A stretch of 63,826 nucleotides of DNA, filler included, from Pseudobdellovibrionaceae bacterium (GTDB lineage Bacteria > Bdellovibrionota > Bdellovibrionia > Bdellovibrionales > UBA1609): NCBI GenBank assembly GCA_030591685.1. It is 5 parts of 5 records of this genome, joined end to end, with 100 filler letters (N's around TTAATTAATTAA, not from the genome) between each part and the next. Parts side by side here need not be neighbours in the genome. Positions count along the whole stretch, not along the records: positions 28,882 to 41,706 come from JAUVAX010000059.1; 4 more parts are not named here. One strand, 5' to 3'. The stretch's first letter is position 1. Each line of letters begins with the position of its first letter. Position numbers and translations under genes: made by a program. The notes under the pieces were generated by a model that was given only the letters and a program-made list of their open reading frames with translations, was not told where the DNA came from and did no database searches. Shown here in pieces: positions 24,999-61,628 of the stretch.

Positions 24999-25127
24999 TT
25001 ACACGTTGGTGCACAAGGGATATGCTTGAGCAGCTCTTGAACTGATTTAATTTGAAAATGTACTCCATCCGTCCAATAATCACCATTACTAGGAAAATAC
25101 TTTTCAGAGTCCGTAAAATCATAAACC
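24999..25127. repeat. 129-bp direct repeat copy 1 (duplicate of the 3' end of the 27160-28176 gene)
   Basis: 127/129 identical to 27170-27298. Confidence 0.95.
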
Positions 25128-25138
25128 GCAATCCAACA

Positions 25139-27159: not shown

Positions 27160-28176
27160 TTATTCATAATTACACGTTGGTGCACAAGGGATATGTTTGA
27201 GTAGCTCTTGAACTGATTTAATTTGAAAATGTACTCCATCCGTCCAATAATCACCATTACTAGGAAAATACTTTTCAGAGTCCGTAAAATCATAAACCTC
27301 AACACCCTTAAACGTATTAAGCCCCAACATAACTGACTTCCATTTACCATAAAGTTTATATAAATTTTTATTCTTTACAAATTGTGCATAAAACTGTGGG
27401 TGATAGGGAGTCATTATAAATATAACCCTAATCGACCTGCTTTGGCTTAAGCCCCCGACTTCATAAATTATATTTTTAATTGGCGCTGAAAGCGCTGTAT
27501 AGCCTGACCAAGCCCCCGACCTGTACTCCTCTAAACTTTTACCTATGGCGGCGCTCAAACGCTCCTTGGATGGACTTTTATAATTTAAACTCCTAATTGT
27601 TCCATTCTCCTTAAATGACGATTCCTTTAAGGGTTTAAAAAGGCTCCTCATAGATCTCTCTGTCACCTTACGCTCAATATATGAGAGTACTCTGTCTTTG
27701 AAATCAGGAGTTCGAAGTTGAGACACATAATCACCTACGTATTGACTCATTTCAGTCTGAAAATATAATTTTGCATCCACAGGCAAGTTATTAAACTCAT
27801 AAAAATCAGACACAAAAATAATTGTTTTTAACCTCGGGCTCTCTAAAGCCTTTCGAATGTATAGTAGTTTTACGACCGCGCTTGCTCCCCCGATTGAGGA
27901 CGAAAAACAATTTGATTTTAAATGTGGGTTTACAATTTTTGGTACAAAATGTTCGCTCCTTGAAGACCCTACTATTAAGCAGTCTAAATCTTTAAAGCGC
28001 TCTAAGAGTTTAAATTTAACAAAAATATCATTATATTCAGTAACTACATCGCCCCGCCAAGGGGCATTTAAGTTTTTAAACGGGTCAACATAAGTATTTA
28101 GTCCAACCAGACCAGCCAGAAAAACAACAAGTACTGAGAAAAATATAATTGTAAACTGTTTTGCTTGAGCTTCCAT
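27160..28176 (-). CDS. SGNH-like periplasmic partner of MBOAT O-acyltransferase (AlgJ/DltD-like)
   Basis: N-terminal TM with N..VDP, IVGSSR (block I Ser), MTPYHP, DGVH (DxxH); directly downstream of the MBOAT gene. Confidence 0.75.
   Translation of the reverse strand: MEAQAKQFTIIFFSVLVVFLAGLVGLNTYVDPFKNLNAPWRGDVVTEYNDIFVKFKLLERFKDLDCLIVGSSRSEHFVPKIVNPHLKSNCFSSSIGGASAVVKLLYIRKALESPRLKTIIFVSDFYEFNNLPVDAKLYFQTEMSQYVGDYVSQLRTPDFKDRVLSYIERKVTERSMRSLFKPLKESSFKENGTIRSLNYKSPSKERLSAAIGKSLEEYRSGAWSGYTALSAPIKNIIYEVGGLSQSRSIRVIFIMTPYHPQFYAQFVKNKNLYKLYGKWKSVMLGLNTFKGVEVYDFTDSEKYFPSNGDYWTDGVHFQIKSVQELLKHIPCAPTCNYE
27170..27298. repeat. 129-bp direct repeat copy 2 (inside CDS 3' end)
   Basis: 127/129 identical to 24999-25127. 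Confidence 0.95.
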
Positions 28177-28781: not shown

Positions 28782-28881
28782 NNNNNNNNNNNNNNNNNNN
28801 NNNNNNNNNNNNNNNNNNNNNNNNNTTAATTAATTAANNNNNNNNNNNNNNNNNNNNNNNNNNNNNNNNNNNNNNNNNNNN
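28782..28881. other. Artificial contig spacer
   Basis: N44-TTAATTAATTAA-N44 (six-frame stop linker). Confidence 0.99.
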
Positions 28882-30616
28882 CCTTACGCCAGTCTTTTCT
28901 AAGAGAGTCGCCTATGCAAATCAATATGCTTTTATATTGGGATTTACAATTTTACTTTATAGTTGCATATATTTTTACTTGGAAATGTACATTATTTCTT
29001 TATACTTAATCCCATTTTTCTTTGTTAATTTGGGATGTTTATATTTAAATTATTTGCGTAAATACAACGTTTCTCGATTTTTGATACTTATAAATTTTAA
29101 TGTTTCAATATATTTAGTCTCTACCCTTTTAGGGCAAGGGGCTGCAGTGCATTTTTGGTATATAGCTGCAGCACAGACTCCTTTTGTGTTATTTGACCTT
29201 AAAGAGCGTGGCTATATAGTTACTTTTGTAGCCGTACCTATATTACTACTTTTATTTCAATGGTCCACTGGGTTTCAGTTTCATAATGTGCCTGTTATTG
29301 AACTCTCAGAGTTTATAAGTAATATAATATCATTAACTATGATCTTGGGTTCACTTTTAACGGCCTTTTCTTTGAGTTATTTTGTGTCTCGTGATTATCA
29401 AAGCGCCGAGGCTTCGACAAATCTTTCTAAGCGCATGCTCTCTGATCAGACCAGTGCCCTTGAGGCCTCTGCCATTGTGGCCATAACAGATGTAAGAGGG
29501 CGCATACTCCATGTGAATGATCTTTTTTGTCAAATCACTGGTTACTCAGAAGAGGAACTTGTTGGTAACACACACGCTATTATAAACTCTAAAACCCACC
29601 CCAAAGAATTTTTTAATGAAATGTGGAAAACTATTGCGTCAAAAAAAGTATGGCGAGGCGAGGTGTGTAATAAAGCAAAAGATGGGAGCTTATATTGGGT
29701 TCATACTACAATCACCCCGATCATTGGGATAAATAATAAAATTGATCGCTATGTATCAATACGTTATGAAATCACTGAAATTAAAGAGTTACAACATCAG
29801 CTTATAAGGGCCAGAGAAGCCCGTGAGACAGAGCTTATCAGTGAACTAAAGCAGTCCCAAGACCAACTCATACAGGCGGCAAAGCTGGCCTCTTTAGGCG
29901 AAATGACCGCCGGCCTCGCTCATGAGCTCAATAACCCGTTGATGTGTATTAAGGGTTTTAATGGGCGTATAAGAGCCGCACTTATAAAAAACGGTCAAGT
30001 CTCTCATGAAGAGATCGGTGACTTTGTAAATGAGGTCAATAGCAGTGCTGACCGGATGTCTAATATTATCACTCACTTTAAAGATTTCTCCCGCCAATCC
30101 ACCCATGCAAAAACAGCTGTGTGTGTGAATGAGATTATTAAAAAATCATTTAAGTTTTTTAGCGAGCAACTGAGGTTTAAAGGCATTGAAGTGGAGCTTT
30201 TATTAAGCCCCACCCCGTTTAAGGTACTAGGGGATGCCAACCGGTTAGAGCAGGTTGTTATTAACTTAACCTCTAATGCAATTGATGCATTTAGTATTGT
30301 GGGAGGGGCCGAAATGAGGATCCTCGTGACCACAGAGCTCGTGGGGGACACTGTTATAGTAAAATTTAGTGACAACGGGATGGGGATCTCTAAAGAGCTT
30401 CAGAGCCGTATTTTTGATCCCTTTTTTACAACAAAAGACACAGGCAAAGGCACGGGGCTTGGGCTTTCTATTTCTCATGGTATTATTATGAATCATTTAG
30501 GGCAGTTGACTGTTGAGGACTCTTTTGGGCAGGGGACCACCTTTATTATTTCGTTACCGAGGCATAAATCTGATGATAGTAAAGGTGATGAGGGTAAAGA
30601 TGCTAAGGCCGCTTAA
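28882..30616 (+). CDS. Membrane-bound PAS sensor histidine kinase (NtrB-like), 5'-truncated by gap
   Basis: About 5-6 TM helices, PAS (IVAITDVRGRILHVNDLFCQITGY..WRGEVCNKAKDGSLYWV), H-box AGLAHELNNPL, DNGMG, FDPFFTTK, GTGLGL; frame open from 28883. Confidence 0.92.
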
Positions 30617-30665
30617 TAAGTAGAAGGCTTTTAAAAGCAAGTGGCTCATTAGCCCATTTTGTTAC

Positions 30666-31070
30666 CTATGCGGCATTTGTTTTTTTATCGCCCTTAAGTA
30701 AGACGTTCATCCAAATGATATATCTTTTATCTTCTATAGGTTTATCTAAAAAAACGACCTCATCAAGTAGGTCCATGTGAGTGCACTCGGCCTCATCACG
30801 GTATCCTGTAAGCAGTAATATCCTTGTTTTAGCATTAGGGCCATTAGAGGTACGTAGGAGTTTAACTAAGTCCATCCCCGTGAGCTTTGGCATCCGGTGA
30901 TCTAGAGAAATAGCGTCAAATTTTTTAACTTTAAGTCTCGCTAAGGCCTCGGTAGAGTCGTTAAAGGTCTCTATTTCACAGTCAAAATTATCCTCTAAAA
31001 CCAGGGACAGAAGTTTTGTAATTTGTGGCTCATCGTCGACGATTGCAATTTGGTATTTTGGTGTACTCAT
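30666..31070 (-). CDS. Single-domain response regulator (CheY-like)
   Basis: IVDDE, LDHRMP, LLTG, DKP. Confidence 0.9.
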   Translation of the reverse strand: MSTPKYQIAIVDDEPQITKLLSLVLEDNFDCEIETFNDSTEALARLKVKKFDAISLDHRMPKLTGMDLVKLLRTSNGPNAKTRILLLTGYRDEAECTHMDLLDEVVFLDKPIEDKRYIIWMNVLLKGDKKTNAA

Positions 31071-31293: not shown

Positions 31294-32412
31294 ATGTATT
31301 TTATAATAATTTTTTTTAATTTAATTTCACTCTCCGTACTTGATGCAAGTGCAAATACGGGCAATAGCCCTCAGGGGTTATACGGTACTGTCCTTACTGG
31401 AGGGCAAAAGCTCTACAGTGCACCACAGTTTAATCAGTCAAATTTTCTTTGTAATCTTAATATTGGTGACACGTTAGGTCTCACAGGGCAGCTCGGCGGT
31501 AAAAACCGTAATACATTTTCAGCTCTGATTAAGAGTAACAGTTGTAACGCCAGCCGTGGCTATATATACGGCCCCCCTTTTACTAAGGTGAGGCATGTAG
31601 GTGGTAACAAAAACACATCGCCGGTACTTGTTCGTGGGGGCTCTGATTACAGTAATATATACGGCTCTGTAGACAAAAAAAATATAAATTGCAAGGTGGC
31701 CAGAGACACCCTTGTTTATGCTGTTGGCCCCGCGTTTTCAAACCCAAGGCTAACGAAAGTTCAATTGCCACAGTATACAAAATGTAAATCGAGCTCAGGT
31801 TATATAAGCTCTGACGACATTGTAGAGAGCTCCTTCGATAACTGGGTCACTTTTGATAAAAATACCCCCTCTTATGAGGGCTCTGACCCTGATGAAAAAA
31901 CAGAGTCTCAAGGGCCATGTCTAACATGCTACTCGACCAAAACGAGCCCTAAATCAAAAAAGAACTTTATTGATTTAAAGCAAACAGTAAAGGGTTTAGG
32001 CGCTGATAAACGCATAGATTATATGATTAATTATGCAGAAAAAAATAAAGAGCCTAAGTCAACAGGCTGGTGTTATAGGTATGTGAAAAAAGCCCTTCAA
32101 GCCTCAGGGCTGGCCTCAAAGTACCTTGAGGGTGCATCGGCTAAAAATGCCGGGGGCCCTCTAAAGGCTGAGGGTTTTAAAAACCTTATGGATGTCCCTA
32201 AGGGTGTAAATAAAATTAAAAGCCCCTATAATGCCCCTATGGGTGCTATTTTAGTGTACTCAGGCGGAGAGCATGGGCACATTGAGATTAAAACTAAAAA
32301 TGGTTTTATTAGCGATTATGAAAGCAAAATGGCTCGCACAGGGTCTAGTCAGTCAGCGATTTCTGGGCGAAACAGAACTCTTATTGGGGTTTATGTAAAG
32401 GGGGCTTCATGA
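31294..32412 (+). CDS. Secreted putative peptidoglycan amidase: SH3-like repeats plus CHAP/NlpC-P60-like catalytic domain
   Basis: Signal peptide; two repeats ending C..S.GYI; catalytic Cys (GWCYRYVKKAL) and His (GAILVY..GHIEIK..FISDY). Confidence 0.7.
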   Translation: MYFIIIFFNLISLSVLDASANTGNSPQGLYGTVLTGGQKLYSAPQFNQSNFLCNLNIGDTLGLTGQLGGKNRNTFSALIKSNSCNASRGYIYGPPFTKVRHVGGNKNTSPVLVRGGSDYSNIYGSVDKKNINCKVARDTLVYAVGPAFSNPRLTKVQLPQYTKCKSSSGYISSDDIVESSFDNWVTFDKNTPSYEGSDPDEKTESQGPCLTCYSTKTSPKSKKNFIDLKQTVKGLGADKRIDYMINYAEKNKEPKSTGWCYRYVKKALQASGLASKYLEGASAKNAGGPLKAEGFKNLMDVPKGVNKIKSPYNAPMGAILVYSGGEHGHIEIKTKNGFISDYESKMARTGSSQSAISGRNRTLIGVYVKGAS

Positions 32413-32808: not shown

Positions 32809-34014
32809 TTATGCAGATTTTTTATTAACTGAAAATTGATTTAGGTATTCAGATTTTAATTTTTCGATATCTTTATCTGTGGCTTTATTGGATTTTAATA
32901 GAAAAATTTGATTAGAACTCTGCTGTCCTTTTAATTGATAATGTCCGAGCTCAGTGTATAAGCCTTTACTAGAGATTCCTTGAATTGACTCTAGTACATT
33001 CCTTGTAAAAATAATGTTACTACCAGGTAGAAAATGAGTAATAGCCTCCAGTCTATGTGCTAAATCAATATCAATAGAACTTGTATCGAATTTCCTTCTA
33101 GTTTGAACTCCATTTTCTGTATTTAATACTGCTTCACGTAAAAACACATTACAGTCGTTAGCTTCATGAACAGCAATTCCACATTCTACTTCAGTGTCGT
33201 AATGATCAGTAATGCCTTTAATTGATGACCTAAGTTCTTGTGCGGCAGCAAAGGCTGCCTTAGTTGGGTGATCACTACCCTCAGTTAATCCAAAATTGGC
33301 ATAAATTTTATCTCCCTCTTGTGACTCTACCTCTCCCCCATGCTTTAGAATTACCTCCCATGCTGTCTGCAGTACTTTTACTCGAACAGGGGTTCTCCCC
33401 ACGTATTGACCATGAAGATTACTGCTATTAATAATATCCATAACTAAACCGGCTAAATTTCTTTTTATAGGAAACACTACATTATTTTCTGCCGCCCATA
33501 ATACAAACGGATGAACCCAGCTCTGCAATTCAGCCTCCAACCTCATATGACTGGATAATAATAGATTTAATTCATTACAACTTGATTGAAGTTTTTCATT
33601 TTTTACTTTGAGTGTTTCGGATAAACAAACACGTTGAAATTCACTTTCATAAAACTTAAAAGCTCTCTCAATTGAGGCAAGTAGTTTCTCAGTGTCCCAA
33701 GGTTTAATAATGTAATCAAATACTTGCGCCTTTCTAATGGATTCAACTATAGAGTTTTCATCACTGTAACCAGTTGTTATAATTCTAATGGCATTTGGAA
33801 CTATTGATTTTGTCAACTCTAAAAATTTAAAACCCTGCATGTGAGGCATTCGCTGATCGCTAATTATAATTGAAGGGTCGATATCCTTGATGTTTTCTAA
33901 GGCCTCAATGGGGCTGCTAAAGCAATGAAGTTTAAAATCATCAGGAAGTAGGCTTTCGAGACCAATATGTTGATGGACTTCGTCATCTACATAAACAATT
34001 CGAAAATTATTCAT
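32809..34014 (-). CDS. Response regulator receiver fused to class III nucleotide cyclase-like domain
   Basis: REC: YVDDE, ISDQRMP, TTG, IKPW; cyclase: VMDIINSS, QEGDKIYANFG, CGIAVH, DIDLAHRLE. Confidence 0.85.
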   Translation of the reverse strand: MNNFRIVYVDDEVHQHIGLESLLPDDFKLHCFSSPIEALENIKDIDPSIIISDQRMPHMQGFKFLELTKSIVPNAIRIITTGYSDENSIVESIRKAQVFDYIIKPWDTEKLLASIERAFKFYESEFQRVCLSETLKVKNEKLQSSCNELNLLLSSHMRLEAELQSWVHPFVLWAAENNVVFPIKRNLAGLVMDIINSSNLHGQYVGRTPVRVKVLQTAWEVILKHGGEVESQEGDKIYANFGLTEGSDHPTKAAFAAAQELRSSIKGITDHYDTEVECGIAVHEANDCNVFLREAVLNTENGVQTRRKFDTSSIDIDLAHRLEAITHFLPGSNIIFTRNVLESIQGISSKGLYTELGHYQLKGQQSSNQIFLLKSNKATDKDIEKLKSEYLNQFSVNKKSA

Positions 34015-35864
34015 GCTGACTCCTTTTGTTTTATATTTTGAGGTGGCATAGTTATGTCAAAAGTTGTTCCCTTTCCAAGTATGCTAGTAACCTTAACCTT
34101 GCCACGGTGCCGTTTTTCAATTTCACTCTTGACTATATATAAACCTAAACCAGTTCCGTGTCCAACATCCTTGGTTGTAAAAAATGGGTCAAAAATTTTA
34201 GCGAGAGTGCTTTTATCGATACCTGGGCCATTGTCAGCTATCGAAGTATGAAAATTCCCACTAGAATCCTTACTAGCTGTAATTATTATTTCCCCACCCT
34301 CCTTGTTAATAGAGTCAGCAGCGTTTGTAATTAAGTTCATAATCACTTGGTTGATTCCCACTACAGAGCAATAGACTGTTATTTCTGGGTCAAACCTCCT
34401 TTGTACATTTATACCAACCAAGCTGCTTCTAGCAATTGTTGTAACTGAATTAATAATTTCATTAAACTCGATATTTTTCATGTTTGCTTGGTTGAGTCCT
34501 GTATAGCTTCGTAAGCTTTTTACTATATCCGTTGTTACTTTAGATCCATGAGAAATAGTTTCTAATAATTTGTTGATTTTTGTAAGATTTTGACTATCTT
34601 TTGGGACAGCAAGTGAGATTTGTCGACTCAAACCTATGATGCATGCATTAACATAATTTGTACTATTATTAATTTCATGTGCAATGCCAGCACTAAAAGT
34701 ACCTAAAGATGCAAGCTTTGCGCTTTGAATTAATTCAGCCTGAACCTTCTCTTTATCCTTTAGAGCCTGGGATAACTCATTAGTTCGATCTATAACTTTA
34801 AGCTCCATGGTTTGAAGTAGGTCGTCCCGTTCCCTGTATGTATCACGAATTTTTTGGTTAATTGATAGTGAAAAAATTAAGTACCCAAAAAGCAATCCAA
34901 CAGGGAAAAGACTGGCCATACTGGTAGATCCAGAAAATATTAACATTTCCTTTATAGTTAGTATTGAGAAGATAAGTGCGAATAGCAGTTCAAGAGTTTT
35001 AGAGTATTTTTTAAGGGTAAATATATCTTTAAAGCAACGAAACATTATTGCGGCTAAACACAGTAGTACAGGTAGAAAGGGTAATGATGTGCCAATTTGT
35101 ACTTCATCACCCGATTCACCCACCAGTATGATGATTCCCCCTATTAGAGCCGTAAAAAAAAGTAATTTAATTAAGAACGAACTAATCATTTTTTTTGTAT
35201 AAAAGGAAAACATTAAGGAGAAGAAGCCAAGAAATAGAAAAATATCTGCTGTTTTGTGAATATTTATTAGACTCCATGTAATTCCAAAGACTCCACTCTG
35301 ATTCCATAAAAAATAGAGCGACAAGAAAAGTGCTGATAAAGAAACTGAAGAAGTAGTTAGTATGTTGCTCTCGTTGATGAAAGCTATTAATAGTATCAGA
35401 GCCAAGAAGGCAAGAGAAATGGTAGCAGAAAGATACATCCCGTTTATTGATAAGTTGGCCTCTGACCCTCTGGAAACATACGGTATGCTTGAGAAATTAG
35501 AAAAATATTTAGAGTAACCATCAACAGTCCAAACTATCTTGTCATTTTCGTCCAAAATAAGTAAATCATTGCAGTGTACCTTTATCTGACTAAATACAAA
35601 TTTGGGTTGCAGGGGTTGATTAATGCTTCTTCGAAATTTATTTGAAGTAACAGTTTGAACTCCATATAAAATCCTTGGGAAAATTAAAGTATTATTTTTA
35701 GAGCAATTTAAATCATTAATTTTAGCTTCTAAAGTCAAGTTCAAGTCATTATTTTTAATATCCCAATTTTTTGTAACTTCCCATGGGCCAAGGTCGCTTG
35801 GGTACTGTTGAATCCCCAGCATGGTTTGTGATAATAAAAAAAGAGAAATTACGAACTCCATCAT
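34011..35864 (-). CDS. Multi-TM sensor histidine kinase (periplasmic domain plus about 7 TM)
   Basis: Signal peptide, about 7 hydrophobic segments, AGIAHEINN H-box, NLITNA, DNGPG, FDPFFTTK, GTGLGL. Confidence 0.92.
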   Translation of the reverse strand: MMEFVISLFLLSQTMLGIQQYPSDLGPWEVTKNWDIKNNDLNLTLEAKINDLNCSKNNTLIFPRILYGVQTVTSNKFRRSINQPLQPKFVFSQIKVHCNDLLILDENDKIVWTVDGYSKYFSNFSSIPYVSRGSEANLSINGMYLSATISLAFLALILLIAFINESNILTTSSVSLSALFLSLYFLWNQSGVFGITWSLINIHKTADIFLFLGFFSLMFSFYTKKMISSFLIKLLFFTALIGGIIILVGESGDEVQIGTSLPFLPVLLCLAAIMFRCFKDIFTLKKYSKTLELLFALIFSILTIKEMLIFSGSTSMASLFPVGLLFGYLIFSLSINQKIRDTYRERDDLLQTMELKVIDRTNELSQALKDKEKVQAELIQSAKLASLGTFSAGIAHEINNSTNYVNACIIGLSRQISLAVPKDSQNLTKINKLLETISHGSKVTTDIVKSLRSYTGLNQANMKNIEFNEIINSVTTIARSSLVGINVQRRFDPEITVYCSVVGINQVIMNLITNAADSINKEGGEIIITASKDSSGNFHTSIADNGPGIDKSTLAKIFDPFFTTKDVGHGTGLGLYIVKSEIEKRHRGKVKVTSILGKGTTFDITMPPQNIKQKESA

Positions 35865-37537
35865 TACACAGTTACTTCCTCAGCGTTTTGGTTGAAATAT
35901 TTATGACCGACCTTTTCAAAGGCATTCTTCAGTACGAGTATGGTATAATCAATATCAGATTCATTAAACTTAGAGGTTAGAGAGAATCTAAACCTACAAC
36001 GATTTTTTTCAACAACAGGGTACATGACAGGTAACGCATAGACTCCATTATTGAGTAGTTCTTGGAATATTTCTCCCATTTTTTTTTCGTCAAATATATC
36101 GACTGGAACTACAGGTGTTCGGTGAGATGGGTCTATTGGTACTCCAATAGAGATTAATCCAGAAACAAATCTCTCAATATTTGAGAATAATTTTTCTTGA
36201 AGCTCGCCTGATGATAATATTTCTATGGACTTTAATGTCGCAGCCGCTACTCCTGGGGGGAATGATGTAGCAAACATAAGTGATCTAGCATATGCTTTGT
36301 ACCAATGCATTAATGGTGAGGATCCGGTTACATAGGCCCCAAACGTACCAATGCCCTTTGAAAAGAGACCCATTGTAATATCAACCTTATCTTGTACCCC
36401 ATGATACTCACTAGATCCAATGTAAGTTGAGCCAAGTATCCCAAAACAGTGCCCCTGGTCAACCATAAGTCTAGCATTATATTTATCGCAAATTTTGACG
36501 ATTTTATCAAGGCTCCCTATGGTTCCATCCATCGAAAATATTCCTTCGGTAATAATGAGACATCCCGAATATTTTTCTCGATCTCTCTCTAATACTTTCA
36601 CTAAATGATTCATGTTGTTGTGTTTATAAAATCGCCGGGCGGCTCCAGACATTACCATACCGTCTTGAATTGAAGCATGACTTAACTGGTCTGCAATTAT
36701 TAAGTCCTCTCCGCGTGCTAATCCAGCAATGATTCCAATATTAGCGGCATAACCTGATGGAAAAACTAAGGCCTCACTATTTCCATGCATTTCAGCAATT
36801 TTTTCACATAGTTTTTGGTGTAAAATAGTTGTTCCTGAAGTCGGAGCGGTTCCAGTAGACCCCACTCCGAAAAGAGTAGTGGCATCATTTTGGGCTTTAA
36901 TTACCTCAGGGTGAGAGGAGAGTCCTAGGTAGTCGTTTGATCCAAACATCAGAAGCTCATCTCGCGATTTATTTGCCCCACTTTTTTTAACTTTTACCCT
37001 GGCTCCTGCTTGTGAGGTTCGGGCAAAAAAATATGCATACTTATCACTGTCTTTATATTTTTTGTAGAACATTTCAAATTTTTCACATCGGTCTAAAATA
37101 TCAATGTTATTATAGCTAGTAGTTAAAAAATCCCCAAGGGTAAAACCCTCATCACTCAGCTCAGATTCAAATTCATTTGTGTTATCGTTAAAGTTGAGTT
37201 CTAGGGCTTTAGATAGTGCCCCTCCGACAGGAATACGAATATCGATTGTCGATAAAGCTAAGGTTACTTGGTCTTTGTTATGAAAAATCCTTCTTAAAAC
37301 TAATCGACCAAGAGGTATCTCCAAATCTTTGTATAGAAGTTTAGAACTAGAGTAAATCTTGCCAACATCGTCCATTATCTCTACATCATCTTTTAAAACA
37401 CCTAGTAAGCCGGTAATTGAGCAATCTGAAACAGATAGAGTAATCTGCTCACAGTCCTCAACTCCAATTACGAGGATTAATGACTCTTCACTCCGTATTT
37501 TAAAGCGCTTATTTCTTATAAGGTTTGAGATGTTCAT
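35864..37537 (-). CDS. PilZ-like domain fused to alpha-oxoamine synthase family PLP enzyme (BioF/SPT/CqsA fold)
   Basis: FGSNDYLGLSSHP, SGYAAN, DQLSHASIQDG, YKHNN, EGIFSMDG, DQGH, FSK (PLP Lys), RFRFS; N-terminal ~170 aa with RNKR and DCSITG (DxSxxG). Confidence 0.85.
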   Translation of the reverse strand: MNISNLIRNKRFKIRSEESLILVIGVEDCEQITLSVSDCSITGLLGVLKDDVEIMDDVGKIYSSSKLLYKDLEIPLGRLVLRRIFHNKDQVTLALSTIDIRIPVGGALSKALELNFNDNTNEFESELSDEGFTLGDFLTTSYNNIDILDRCEKFEMFYKKYKDSDKYAYFFARTSQAGARVKVKKSGANKSRDELLMFGSNDYLGLSSHPEVIKAQNDATTLFGVGSTGTAPTSGTTILHQKLCEKIAEMHGNSEALVFPSGYAANIGIIAGLARGEDLIIADQLSHASIQDGMVMSGAARRFYKHNNMNHLVKVLERDREKYSGCLIITEGIFSMDGTIGSLDKIVKICDKYNARLMVDQGHCFGILGSTYIGSSEYHGVQDKVDITMGLFSKGIGTFGAYVTGSSPLMHWYKAYARSLMFATSFPPGVAAATLKSIEILSSGELQEKLFSNIERFVSGLISIGVPIDPSHRTPVVPVDIFDEKKMGEIFQELLNNGVYALPVMYPVVEKNRCRFRFSLTSKFNESDIDYTILVLKNAFEKVGHKYFNQNAEEVTV

Positions 37538-37559
37538 TATGACTCCTTTATTGTGTAAG

Positions 37560-37586
37560 TAATCGGCATTTAATGACAGCTCTTAC
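37560..37586 (-). promoter_or_regulatory. Sigma28-like promoter of the synthase-kinase-regulator operon
   Basis: Minus strand GTAAG-N14-GCCGATTA just upstream of the AAGGAG RBS and ATG 37537. Confidence 0.55.
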
Positions 37587-38350: not shown

Positions 38351-38653
38351 GTGAAAATAATCTCAGCCCCTGAATTTAACAAATGGTACTCAAAGCTCAC
38401 GGGGCGTGAGCAAGCTCAAGTGGATGCACGAATTTCACGTATTGAAGAGAGTGAGTACTTTGGTGATTGGAAGTATTTAGGCGAAGGGTTAGCTGAGTTG
38501 AGGTGGAAGAGTGGCCGCCGAGTTTATTTTACAAAACATGAAGGTCTGATTATTTTATTACTAAATGGAGGATTAAAAAATGCCCAAAAAAAAGACATCA
38601 AAAAAGCGAGACTTCTCCTTCGACGATATGCCGAGTTTAAGGGCAAAGAATAA
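38351..38653 (+). CDS. Type II toxin, RelE/ParE (HigB-like 'addiction module killer')
   Basis: EFNKWYSKL..ARISRI..FGDWKYLGEGLAELR..GRRVYF..IILLLNGG.K..QKKDIKKAR. Confidence 0.88.
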   Translation: MKIISAPEFNKWYSKLTGREQAQVDARISRIEESEYFGDWKYLGEGLAELRWKSGRRVYFTKHEGLIILLLNGGLKNAQKKDIKKARLLLRRYAEFKGKE

Positions 38654-38912
38654 GGGTGAATTGACCTCTTTTGGAGCTTCCAAAAGAATTAAAAATAAAA
38701 AGTATGTCTCTAAGGCTCTTTGGGAGTGTTTGGTGGCTGATGATACTGATGGCTTTAAAGATATCCTGAGTGCTCATTTGGAGTTAATTAATAAGGATGA
38801 GTTTGCAGAGTCAGCGGGCATTTCTCGTAGAACTTTATTTCGCATGTTATCTGCGGAGGGTAACCCAACGCTAGATAATATTTCTAAGATTATTCATAAA
38901 CTGTGTGCATAG
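38580..38912 (+). CDS. Antitoxin, HTH 'addiction module antidote' (HigA-like)
   Basis: AESAGISRRTLFRMLSAEGNPTLDNISKI; downstream of and overlapping the toxin. Confidence 0.88.
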   Translation: MPKKKTSKKRDFSFDDMPSLRAKNKGELTSFGASKRIKNKKYVSKALWECLVADDTDGFKDILSAHLELINKDEFAESAGISRRTLFRMLSAEGNPTLDNISKIIHKLCA

Positions 38913-39944: not shown

Positions 39945-40316
39945 TTACGAGACTGGTTTGTCGAGGCTTTTTATTTTTTTGTTAGCACTTCTAAGGTGAG
40001 AGTTAATGGTTTTTACCATGATTTTTAGCCACTCAGGGCAAGCGTCAAATTGAGGGTAGAGGCTTGAATAGGGGAGCACGATAACTTCAGACCTTTCAGT
40101 CGCCATAGCCCCAGCACTTCTGGGTTTATTGTCAAAAAAACCCATTTCACCAATCATTTGCCCGGGGCCAAGCTCAGCTAATATAACGTGGCTTGAGCCT
40201 TTTACTTTGGTTATTTTAATACGACCTGATTTGATGATGTACATCGCCTCAGAGGGCTCGTTTTCTTTAAAAAGAGTTTGGTCTTTTTCGAGTTGTTTTG
40301 TTTTTTCATCAGCCAT
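39945..40316 (-). CDS. Stand-alone cyclic nucleotide-binding (Crp-like cNMP) domain protein
   Basis: LFKENE.SEAMYIIKSGRIKI, LGPGQMIGEMGFFDNKPRSAGAMA. Confidence 0.9.
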   Translation of the reverse strand: MADEKTKQLEKDQTLFKENEPSEAMYIIKSGRIKITKVKGSSHVILAELGPGQMIGEMGFFDNKPRSAGAMATERSEVIVLPYSSLYPQFDACPEWLKIMVKTINSHLRSANKKIKSLDKPVS

Positions 40317-41706: not shown

Positions 41707-41806
41707 NNNNNNNNNNNNNNNNNNNNNNNNNNNNNNNNNNNNNNNNNNNNTTAATTAATTAANNNNNNNNNNNNNNNNNNNNNNNNNNNNNNNNNNNNNN
41801 NNNNNN
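41707..41806. other. Artificial contig spacer
   Basis: N44-TTAATTAATTAA-N44. Confidence 0.99.
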
Positions 41807-51860: not shown

Positions 51861-51960
51861 NNNNNNNNNNNNNNNNNNNNNNNNNNNNNNNNNNNNNNNN
51901 NNNNTTAATTAATTAANNNNNNNNNNNNNNNNNNNNNNNNNNNNNNNNNNNNNNNNNNNN
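51861..51960. other. Artificial contig spacer
   Basis: N44-TTAATTAATTAA-N44. Confidence 0.99.
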
Positions 51961-61528: not shown

Positions 61529-61628
61529 NNNNNNNNNNNNNNNNNNNNNNNNNNNNNNNNNNNNNNNNNNNNTTAATTAATTAANNNNNNNNNNNNNNNN
61601 NNNNNNNNNNNNNNNNNNNNNNNNNNNN
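61529..61628. other. Artificial contig spacer
   Basis: N44-TTAATTAATTAA-N44. Confidence 0.99.

Follow-up and report, generated by a model that had tools for sequence, protein, structure and literature searches.

A candidate self-signalling cassette of Bdellovibrionota in which an alpha-oxoamine synthase is inherited together with the sensor of a membrane histidine kinase

The question raised by a compact three-gene operon of a Pseudobdellovibrionaceae bacterium (GenBank assembly GCA_030591685.1) is whether its enzyme makes the very signal that the adjoining kinase perceives. The operon lies in a stretch of 63,826 nucleotides, filler included (the window), and is encoded on the minus strand: a PilZ-like/alpha-oxoamine synthase (AOS) fusion (P0001, 557 aa, 35864..37537), delimited by its open reading frame (ORF) and by Pfam, profile and fold comparisons; a sensor histidine kinase (P0002, 617 aa, 34011..35864) with a periplasmic domain, a bundle of about seven transmembrane (TM) helices, a DHp domain (H396) and a CA domain; and P0003 (401 aa, 32809..34014), in which REC is followed by a coiled coil and a class III nucleotidyl-cyclase fold. 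The ORFs overlap at TAATG and ATGA, so that the translational coupling of the three genes proposed in the initial annotation of this DNA holds, as do the gene identities given there, with a fold-type I pyridoxal phosphate (PLP) enzyme (Pfam E 3e-46), HATPase_c and REC recognised directly and the cyclase recognised through its predicted fold. We consider it reasonably probable that these genes form a self-signal (quorum-type) circuit, Cqs/Lqs-like with independent parts, probably expressed in attack phase and gated by c-di-GMP.

An N-terminal query gave matches in 19/401 genomes of the phylum and 35/374 genomes of the order, and the locus set comprised 40 loci from 39 genomes, with five contig-end fragments set aside and two loci (L031 and L033) dropped as duplicates of L135 and L149. 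Analysis of the 32 loci whose three genes are all complete revealed inheritance in two blocks whose border lies inside the kinase gene. The sensor block (kinase aa ~18–340; 34845..35813, minus strand) co-evolves with the synthase and not with its own kinase core: the correlation of distances was 0.87 for synthase with sensor and 0.83 for kinase core with REC-cyclase, against 0.58–0.61 across the blocks; the partial synthase-sensor correlation given the output was 0.80; the synthase-sensor correlation exceeded the synthase-output correlation in 1000/1000 subsamples; and the step in correlation was located between the last helix and DHp. The trees behave likewise, since among splits with support of at least 0.9 the synthase and sensor shared 12 with none conflicting, whereas the synthase and output shared 6 and 8/17 synthase splits conflicted.

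The clearest single case is a pair of loci from the same genus, L142 and L137, which are 37–52% identical in the synthase and 20–32% in the sensor, compared with 94% in DHp, 86% in CA, 90% in REC and 93% in the cyclase, with the downstream DNA in common; DNA identity between them climbs from 31–63% to 62–86% at about kinase codon 330–380. The pair shows an apparent swap of synthase plus sensor that breaks inside the kinase gene, and L135 compared with L129 and L150 presents a weaker version of the same pattern. Two blocks of this kind are expected if the product of the enzyme is the ligand of the sensor, and the co-inheritance of the two favours a putative make-and-sense circuit. There is an evolutionary parallel in Staphylococcus agr, for which parts of PMC8768832 describe signal genes and receptor (agrBDC) that show mutual linkage but none with the response regulator agrA, and recombination that swaps the specificity block; agr differs in its peptide signal and transcription factor, and the likeness is evolutionary only, with no homology claimed.

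The neighbourhood search suggested in the initial annotation further revealed that the three genes are kept together. The kinase directly follows the synthase in 37/38 informative loci, and synthase, kinase and REC-cyclase are collinear in 33/37 informative Bdellovibrionota loci, between unrelated flanks; the remainder are one locus whose third gene is inverted, two loci of G368 with an inverted REC protein lacking the cyclase, and one lone synthase. Searching from the cyclase side gave 21 metagenome loci. The triad is present in every one of them whose upstream DNA exceeds 4 kb (9/9), a tenth has it as far as its contig reaches, and three appear to duplicate genome loci. A mobile accessory module fits these data, because occurrence is patchy, the synthase tree conflicts with family labels and the cassette is low in guanine plus cytosine in the genome of the window, G000 (35.8% against 40.1 ± 1.9%).

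Could the enzyme nevertheless be an ordinary one? Residues N201, H287, D360, H363, K394 and R517 are invariant in 47/47 synthase homologues and correspond to catalytic residues named for serine palmitoyltransferase (SPT) in parts of PMC6148460; the fold type I, the PLP-binding His/Asp/His/Lys and the carboxylate-binding Arg are those of an AOS. Sources place its relatives in Bdellovibrionales, Pseudobdellovibrionaceae and Oligoflexales, including Oligoflexus, label many of them 8-amino-7-oxononanoate synthase and assign one homologue, P0031, to Bdellovibrio sp. qaytius (CIK05_08470); the highest NCBIfam score is indeed that of the BioF model (TIGR00858), and P0001 is the sole AOS gene in G000. 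These points would suit a housekeeping BioF, KBL or SPT lying by chance beside a two-component pair, yet every cut-off was missed: BioF at 329 bits against 426, KBL at 273/493 and 308/460 bits (TIGR01822, NF005394) and bacterial SPT at 285/640, 268/500 and 205/670 bits (NF047600, NF047599, NF047603). Searches of G000 for bioB and bioD gave no match. Among the 40 carrier genomes bioB exceeded its cut-off in 13, 10 of which have a separate bioF-like AOS gene beside it; none of the 40 reached the BioF cut-off, and those bioB-adjacent genes also fell short. Since neither bioB nor bioD was matched in G000 and other carriers possess separate AOS or SPT-like genes, a housekeeping role is unlikely, and the chance-neighbour explanation in particular is hardly credible.

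Phylogeny gave the same answer and bore out the earlier view that the enzyme is not the housekeeping BioF. The tree held 28/41 family sequences and 59/115 reference ORFs (11 near-duplicates or fragments were left out, L126 and L142 were missed by the anchor motif, and CqsA, LqsA and JqsA were not included), the references being generic AOS genes from a pattern scan of genome contigs in which 3/80 loci belonged to the family among the matches listed and most were generic AOS. The synthase family formed one clade of its own (support 1.0, stem 0.50). At a position where 44/45 labelled references have Arg, 28/28 family members have Pro, Ala or His, which suggests that the substrate pocket may have changed relative to those references, and the SPT loop ‘SRFLNG’ becomes S/T-P/A-x-T-T/S-G. 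In one carrier (L131, G600) the synthase reading frame is broken in two, with parts of 299 and 307 aa, and the bioB-adjacent AOS gene is also split, which suggests sequencing indels.

Kinship with SPT raises a second explanation, in which the enzyme makes a membrane-retained, sphingoid-base-like amino-lipid and the kinase monitors it in its own envelope or in the prey niche, as a homeostatic or developmental cue and not as communication between cells. SPT-like enzymes are the nearest labelled group in the tree, with a sister support of only 0.63, and the top PDB match is S. multivorum SPT (33% identity, TM-score 0.93 by target, Z 50.5; search over residues 144–546). Bacterial SPT of the Bacteroidota type is thus closest in fold and sequence, with the catalytic His/Asp/His/Lys/Arg kept, and GTFSK, a motif called SPT-characteristic in parts of PMC10196870, occurs in 20/28 members. 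The cassette enzyme differs from it in its signalling context, PilZ fusion, separate clade and score of 285 bits against 640. An SPT of B. stolpii is listed in PMC6148460. Conserved polar residues within the membrane bundle would also suit a lipid, and this explanation likewise predicts co-evolution of synthase and sensor. It is nonetheless unlikely: seven carrier genomes retain a separate SPT-like gene, no downstream lipid genes are conserved at the loci, and the block swaps between close kin together with an orphan receptor (in G173) suit social signalling better.

The initial annotation had called the locus an Lqs/Cqs-like operon. The arrangement stands, with a synthase beside a sensor kinase, but the parts are not those of the known systems. 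P0001 scored 157 bits on the CqsA-type model covering CqsA, LqsA and JqsA (NF005526), against a cut-off of 428 bits, and the best score among 47 family members was E 7e-70; against solved CqsA chains it scored 92.6 bits and an ordinary KBL control 97.7 bits, so that the synthase is no closer to CqsA than KBL is. A search of four records of plasmids or chromids gave no CqsA-family sequence over the cut-off, and scanning viral contigs by motif gave none. The likeness to Cqs/Lqs/Jqs therefore concerns design, namely an AOS-fold PLP synthase whose gene stands with those for a membrane sensor kinase and a response regulator, in systems where, according to parts of PMC3566124, cqsA, lqsA and jqsA always adjoin the cognate kinase gene; it extends to patchy occurrence and apparent transfer as a unit. 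The differences are a synthase outside the CqsA family with a PilZ-like domain attached, a cyclase-fold output, a FliA-type promoter and a distinct receptor: CqsS and LqsS have six TM helices with minimal loops in the description given in parts of PMC4821796, and the cassette sensor, with its periplasmic domain of ~120 aa, is set apart from them by that description.

The annotation had further credited the kinase with a periplasmic domain and about seven TM helices. The periplasmic domain was confirmed and holds two invariant Cys; at a hydropathy threshold of 1.5, however, six helices were found, and a seventh around D207 is suggested solely by the alignment. The DHp/CA core is intact. The sensor resembles 7TMR-DISM, to judge from a Pfam match (PF07695) in 2/37 sensors (best E 2e-5) and an Atlas score of 0.94 linking it to a cluster with PF07695 in 43%, while its profile gave no meaningful match in the PDB. 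Although mean sensor identity across loci is only ~30%, polar residues in or at the membrane bundle are kept (D207 and D253 in 34/37, Q256 and D/E306 in 37/37) and would be compatible with a lipid ligand bearing an amine. The kinase core is present in 118/149 homologues of the sensor; single proteins have other outputs instead, namely this cyclase (P0179), a canonical cyclase (P0148) or GGDEF (P0183), and in L214 and L223 the sensor is directly fused to the same cyclase family.

The first ~125 residues of the synthase, absent from the earlier description, form a PilZ-like domain (aa ~5–125; 37163..37525, minus strand). Four weak signals agree on this assignment: the profile matched PDB chains named YcgR (E 0.005, weak); an Atlas score of 0.84 with PilZ as top matches serves as a lead only; HHalign against nine PilZ domains of G000 gave a probability of 52% (E 1.4e-4); and Pfam PilZ (PF07238) was found in 2/47 members (best E 0.011). 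The structure model of these residues is all-beta. R8, R11, S40, G43, E73, G77 and R78 are invariant in 38/38 domains; the D/NxSxxG motif is present, with S40 and G43 invariant and D/N in most members and E in a minority, whereas in the RxxxR motif the first Arg of the YcgR-named chains aligns with Ile, leaving an invariant RxxR. G000 carries 6 GGDEF and 10 PilZ matches.

A regulatory domain on the enzyme allows the flow of information to be read in reverse, with the kinase sensing an outside cue (prey, surface or carbohydrate), the cyclase product or c-di-GMP activating the enzyme through PilZ, and the aminoketone acting as an effector metabolite instead of a sensor ligand. Outside cues such as carbohydrate have been proposed for 7TMR-DISM sensors. 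The nucleotide-making output in the same operon, the lack of a DNA-binding regulator and the reuse of the sensor with GGDEF and cyclase outputs are all in keeping with such a flow. It fails, however, to predict a sensor that travels with the synthase and apart from its own kinase core; moreover, the PilZ-like domain correlates with the synthase (r 0.59–0.70) above the cyclase (0.53), and its motifs are retained at loci where the cyclase is missing (L111, L113, L148). We regard reversed flow as distinctly improbable.

The output protein has an intact REC site (D10, D11, D53, T81 and K104 invariant in 34/34), a long helix and the class III cyclase fold. The Pfam search of P0003 gave no match for the cyclase domain; its predicted structure aligned with CyaC and CyaB (Z 20.3, root mean square deviation 2.9–3.0, 181 residues), and the metal-binding D193 and D235 and the transition-state R321 are conserved in 34/34. 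The REC-cyclase with cyclic-nucleotide output that had been proposed thus stands as regards fold, metal-binding Asp residues and Arg, but the canonical selector and Asn are absent: the Lys/Glu selector position is occupied by Ser (27), Ala (3), Asn (2) or His (2), the second selector Asp is present in 26/34, and the Asn of canonical cyclases is replaced by an invariant D317 (34/34). Residues E230, H201, H283, H327 and K307 are conserved specifically in this family. Cyclases without the Asn can be active, according to parts of PMC4215837 and PMC4886424, and the atypical class III proteins Rv1900c, Ma1120 and DUF2652 likewise keep the metal Asps and transition-state Arg with the Asn replaced, in such parts of their descriptions as bear on these residues; the cassette differs from them in the invariant Asp at the Asn position and in Ser/Ala/Asn/His at the selector. 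We consider P0003 to be a predicted class III cyclase-fold output. Assignment to Pycsar (PycC) was rejected, as the PADLOC matches were weak (E 7e-4) and no gene is conserved downstream of the third. L225 and L226 carry more divergent REC-cyclases of this family without this sensor or synthase, one of them following a different kinase.

When would such a circuit be made? The sigma28-like promoter of the initial annotation is upheld by position and by conservation. At 37561..37586 (minus strand) the window has a sigma28/FliA-type site, with a −35 element GTAAG at 37586–37582 and a −10 element CCGATT at 37566–37561, separated by 15 nt, which matches 9/11 positions of the Bdellovibrio attack-phase FliA motif (TTAAG-N16-CCGATA in parts of PMC3627812). 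Matches of at least 9/11 lie upstream of 23/39 synthases, against 35/318 neighbouring control ORFs and 8% of shuffles, and matches of at least 10/11 upstream of 11/39 against 5/318. Selection on the −10 box alone was enough to bring out TTAAG at a distance of 16 nt upstream, across 31 sites (T19, T16, A17, A26, G15). Sigma70 sites were at chance level (22 against 19.5 ± 5). FliA itself is encoded in G000, over the cut-off. Because the FliA-type promoter is conserved, the cassette is probably expressed in attack phase.

In the self-signal circuit that we prefer, FliA would drive the three-gene operon and the PLP enzyme would join an amino acid to an acyl thioester in a condensation that yields an alpha-aminoketone, probably with a long acyl chain, as the weak SPT kinship suggests. 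The variant PilZ domain may gate the synthase by c-di-GMP. The product would be released from the producing cell, and the adjacent 7TM kinase would sense the aminoketone of its cognate enzyme, which may bind acidic residues in the membrane bundle; the kinase would then phosphorylate the REC-cyclase and alter its cyclic-nucleotide output. Swaps of the synthase-plus-sensor block would place different signal dialects on a fixed output. We infer density sensing and a predatory lifestyle of the host on the same footing. A bolder version, which we think quite unlikely, is a closed loop free of transcription factors, in which a sphingoid-like aminoketone activates the 7TM kinase, the atypical cyclase yields a non-canonical cyclic nucleotide, and the PilZ domain, itself atypical, reads this nucleotide and boosts signal synthesis; the swaps would create dialects specific to kin, with which attack-phase cells could count or avoid one another, and orphan receptors would eavesdrop.

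Several observations weigh against a self-signal circuit. Physical linkage explains part of the synthase-sensor congruence, since the two are neighbours, although linkage alone would not readily account for so sharp a step in identity within the kinase gene. The approximately unbiased (AU) test rejected identical synthase and sensor topologies (p 0.002–0.006), with likelihood differences (deltaL) of 41–92 between the synthase and sensor trees compared with 637–725 for the output tree; and the synthase tree on the output data had an anomalous p-AU of 0.076 despite a deltaL of 1334 and Kishino-Hasegawa and Shimodaira-Hasegawa p values of 0. The swap examples come from metagenome assemblies, in which contigs may be chimeric. 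One genome (G010, 97% complete) has the synthase with no sensor found, another (G173, 91% complete) has the sensor and cyclase with no synthase of the family found, and both G368 copies have synthase and kinase without the cyclase. The cyclase lacks both the Lys/Glu selector and the Asn, and the cassette has no conserved exporter or reductase across the informative loci.

Variation around the cassette was also observed. The two G368 copies (L111, L113) each have a divergent DHp and an inverted REC protein of 230 aa, and a metallo-beta-lactamase-fold gene stands in place of the cyclase. In L127, L149, L216, L129, L150 and L132 the cassette is adjoined, either upstream and divergent or downstream, by pdxJ (PLP precursor synthesis), which may supply the PLP cofactor. 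In G204 (L228:574-2565) a same-strand gene for a fatty acyl-AMP ligase–acyl carrier protein fusion begins right where the cyclase gene ends; its product is a possible acyl donor in this genome alone.

The window consists of five separate contigs joined by runs of N (28782–28881, 41707–41806, 51861–51960 and 61529–61628), so that neighbours across these runs are not real; the whole operon sits on a single contig (C57, 12.8 kb) of a genome that comprises 98 contigs and is 100% complete by markers. An Rfam search of this contig gave no match. A Gp49/DUF891-like gene and a helix-turn-helix addiction-module antidote (38351–38912), 0.8 kb upstream of the operon, are a probable toxin-antitoxin pair. 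Further upstream lies a stand-alone protein of 123 aa predicted to bind cyclic nucleoside monophosphates (39945–40316), a possible reader of the cyclic nucleotide; no homologue was found near other cassette loci, and it is therefore not counted as part of the cassette. The same contig carries a multi-TM PAS histidine kinase with a convergent single-domain receiver (28937–31070), and a 372 aa protein with no Pfam match (31294–32412), whose C-terminal Cys...His motifs we take to recall CHAP/NlpC amidases. Elsewhere in the window a 133 bp duplicate (24999–25131 and 27170–27302) is 97.7% identical, and the segment 25133–25976 recurs on contigs C35, C84 and C21 at 86–90%.

A literature search, in which supplements and most subscription journals were not covered, found no published description of the cassette, and found no paper on an autoinducer synthase in Bdellovibrionota. 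Two comparative genomics studies of the phylum (PMC11870529, PMC11656739) do not use the terms quorum, autoinducer, oxononanoate or cyclase in their main text, and their supplementary orthogroup tables may list these genes. The cassette probably represents a hitherto undescribed system of signalling between cells, with ‘dialects’ that differ by lineage, a reading drawn from comparison of sequences. If this is true, the Cqs/Lqs design has an independent origin here, in a different AOS branch and a different receptor family, and the 7TMR-DISM-like membrane bundle gains a candidate ligand. The cassette further contributes a biosynthetic enzyme fused to PilZ, a cyclase of an unusual kind and, of interest to biocatalysis, a new AOS clade, and its natural cognate and non-cognate pairs make the density-sensing question testable with one enzyme and one receptor. 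Whether Bdellovibrionota sense their own density matters for their ecology and for their application as living antibacterials.

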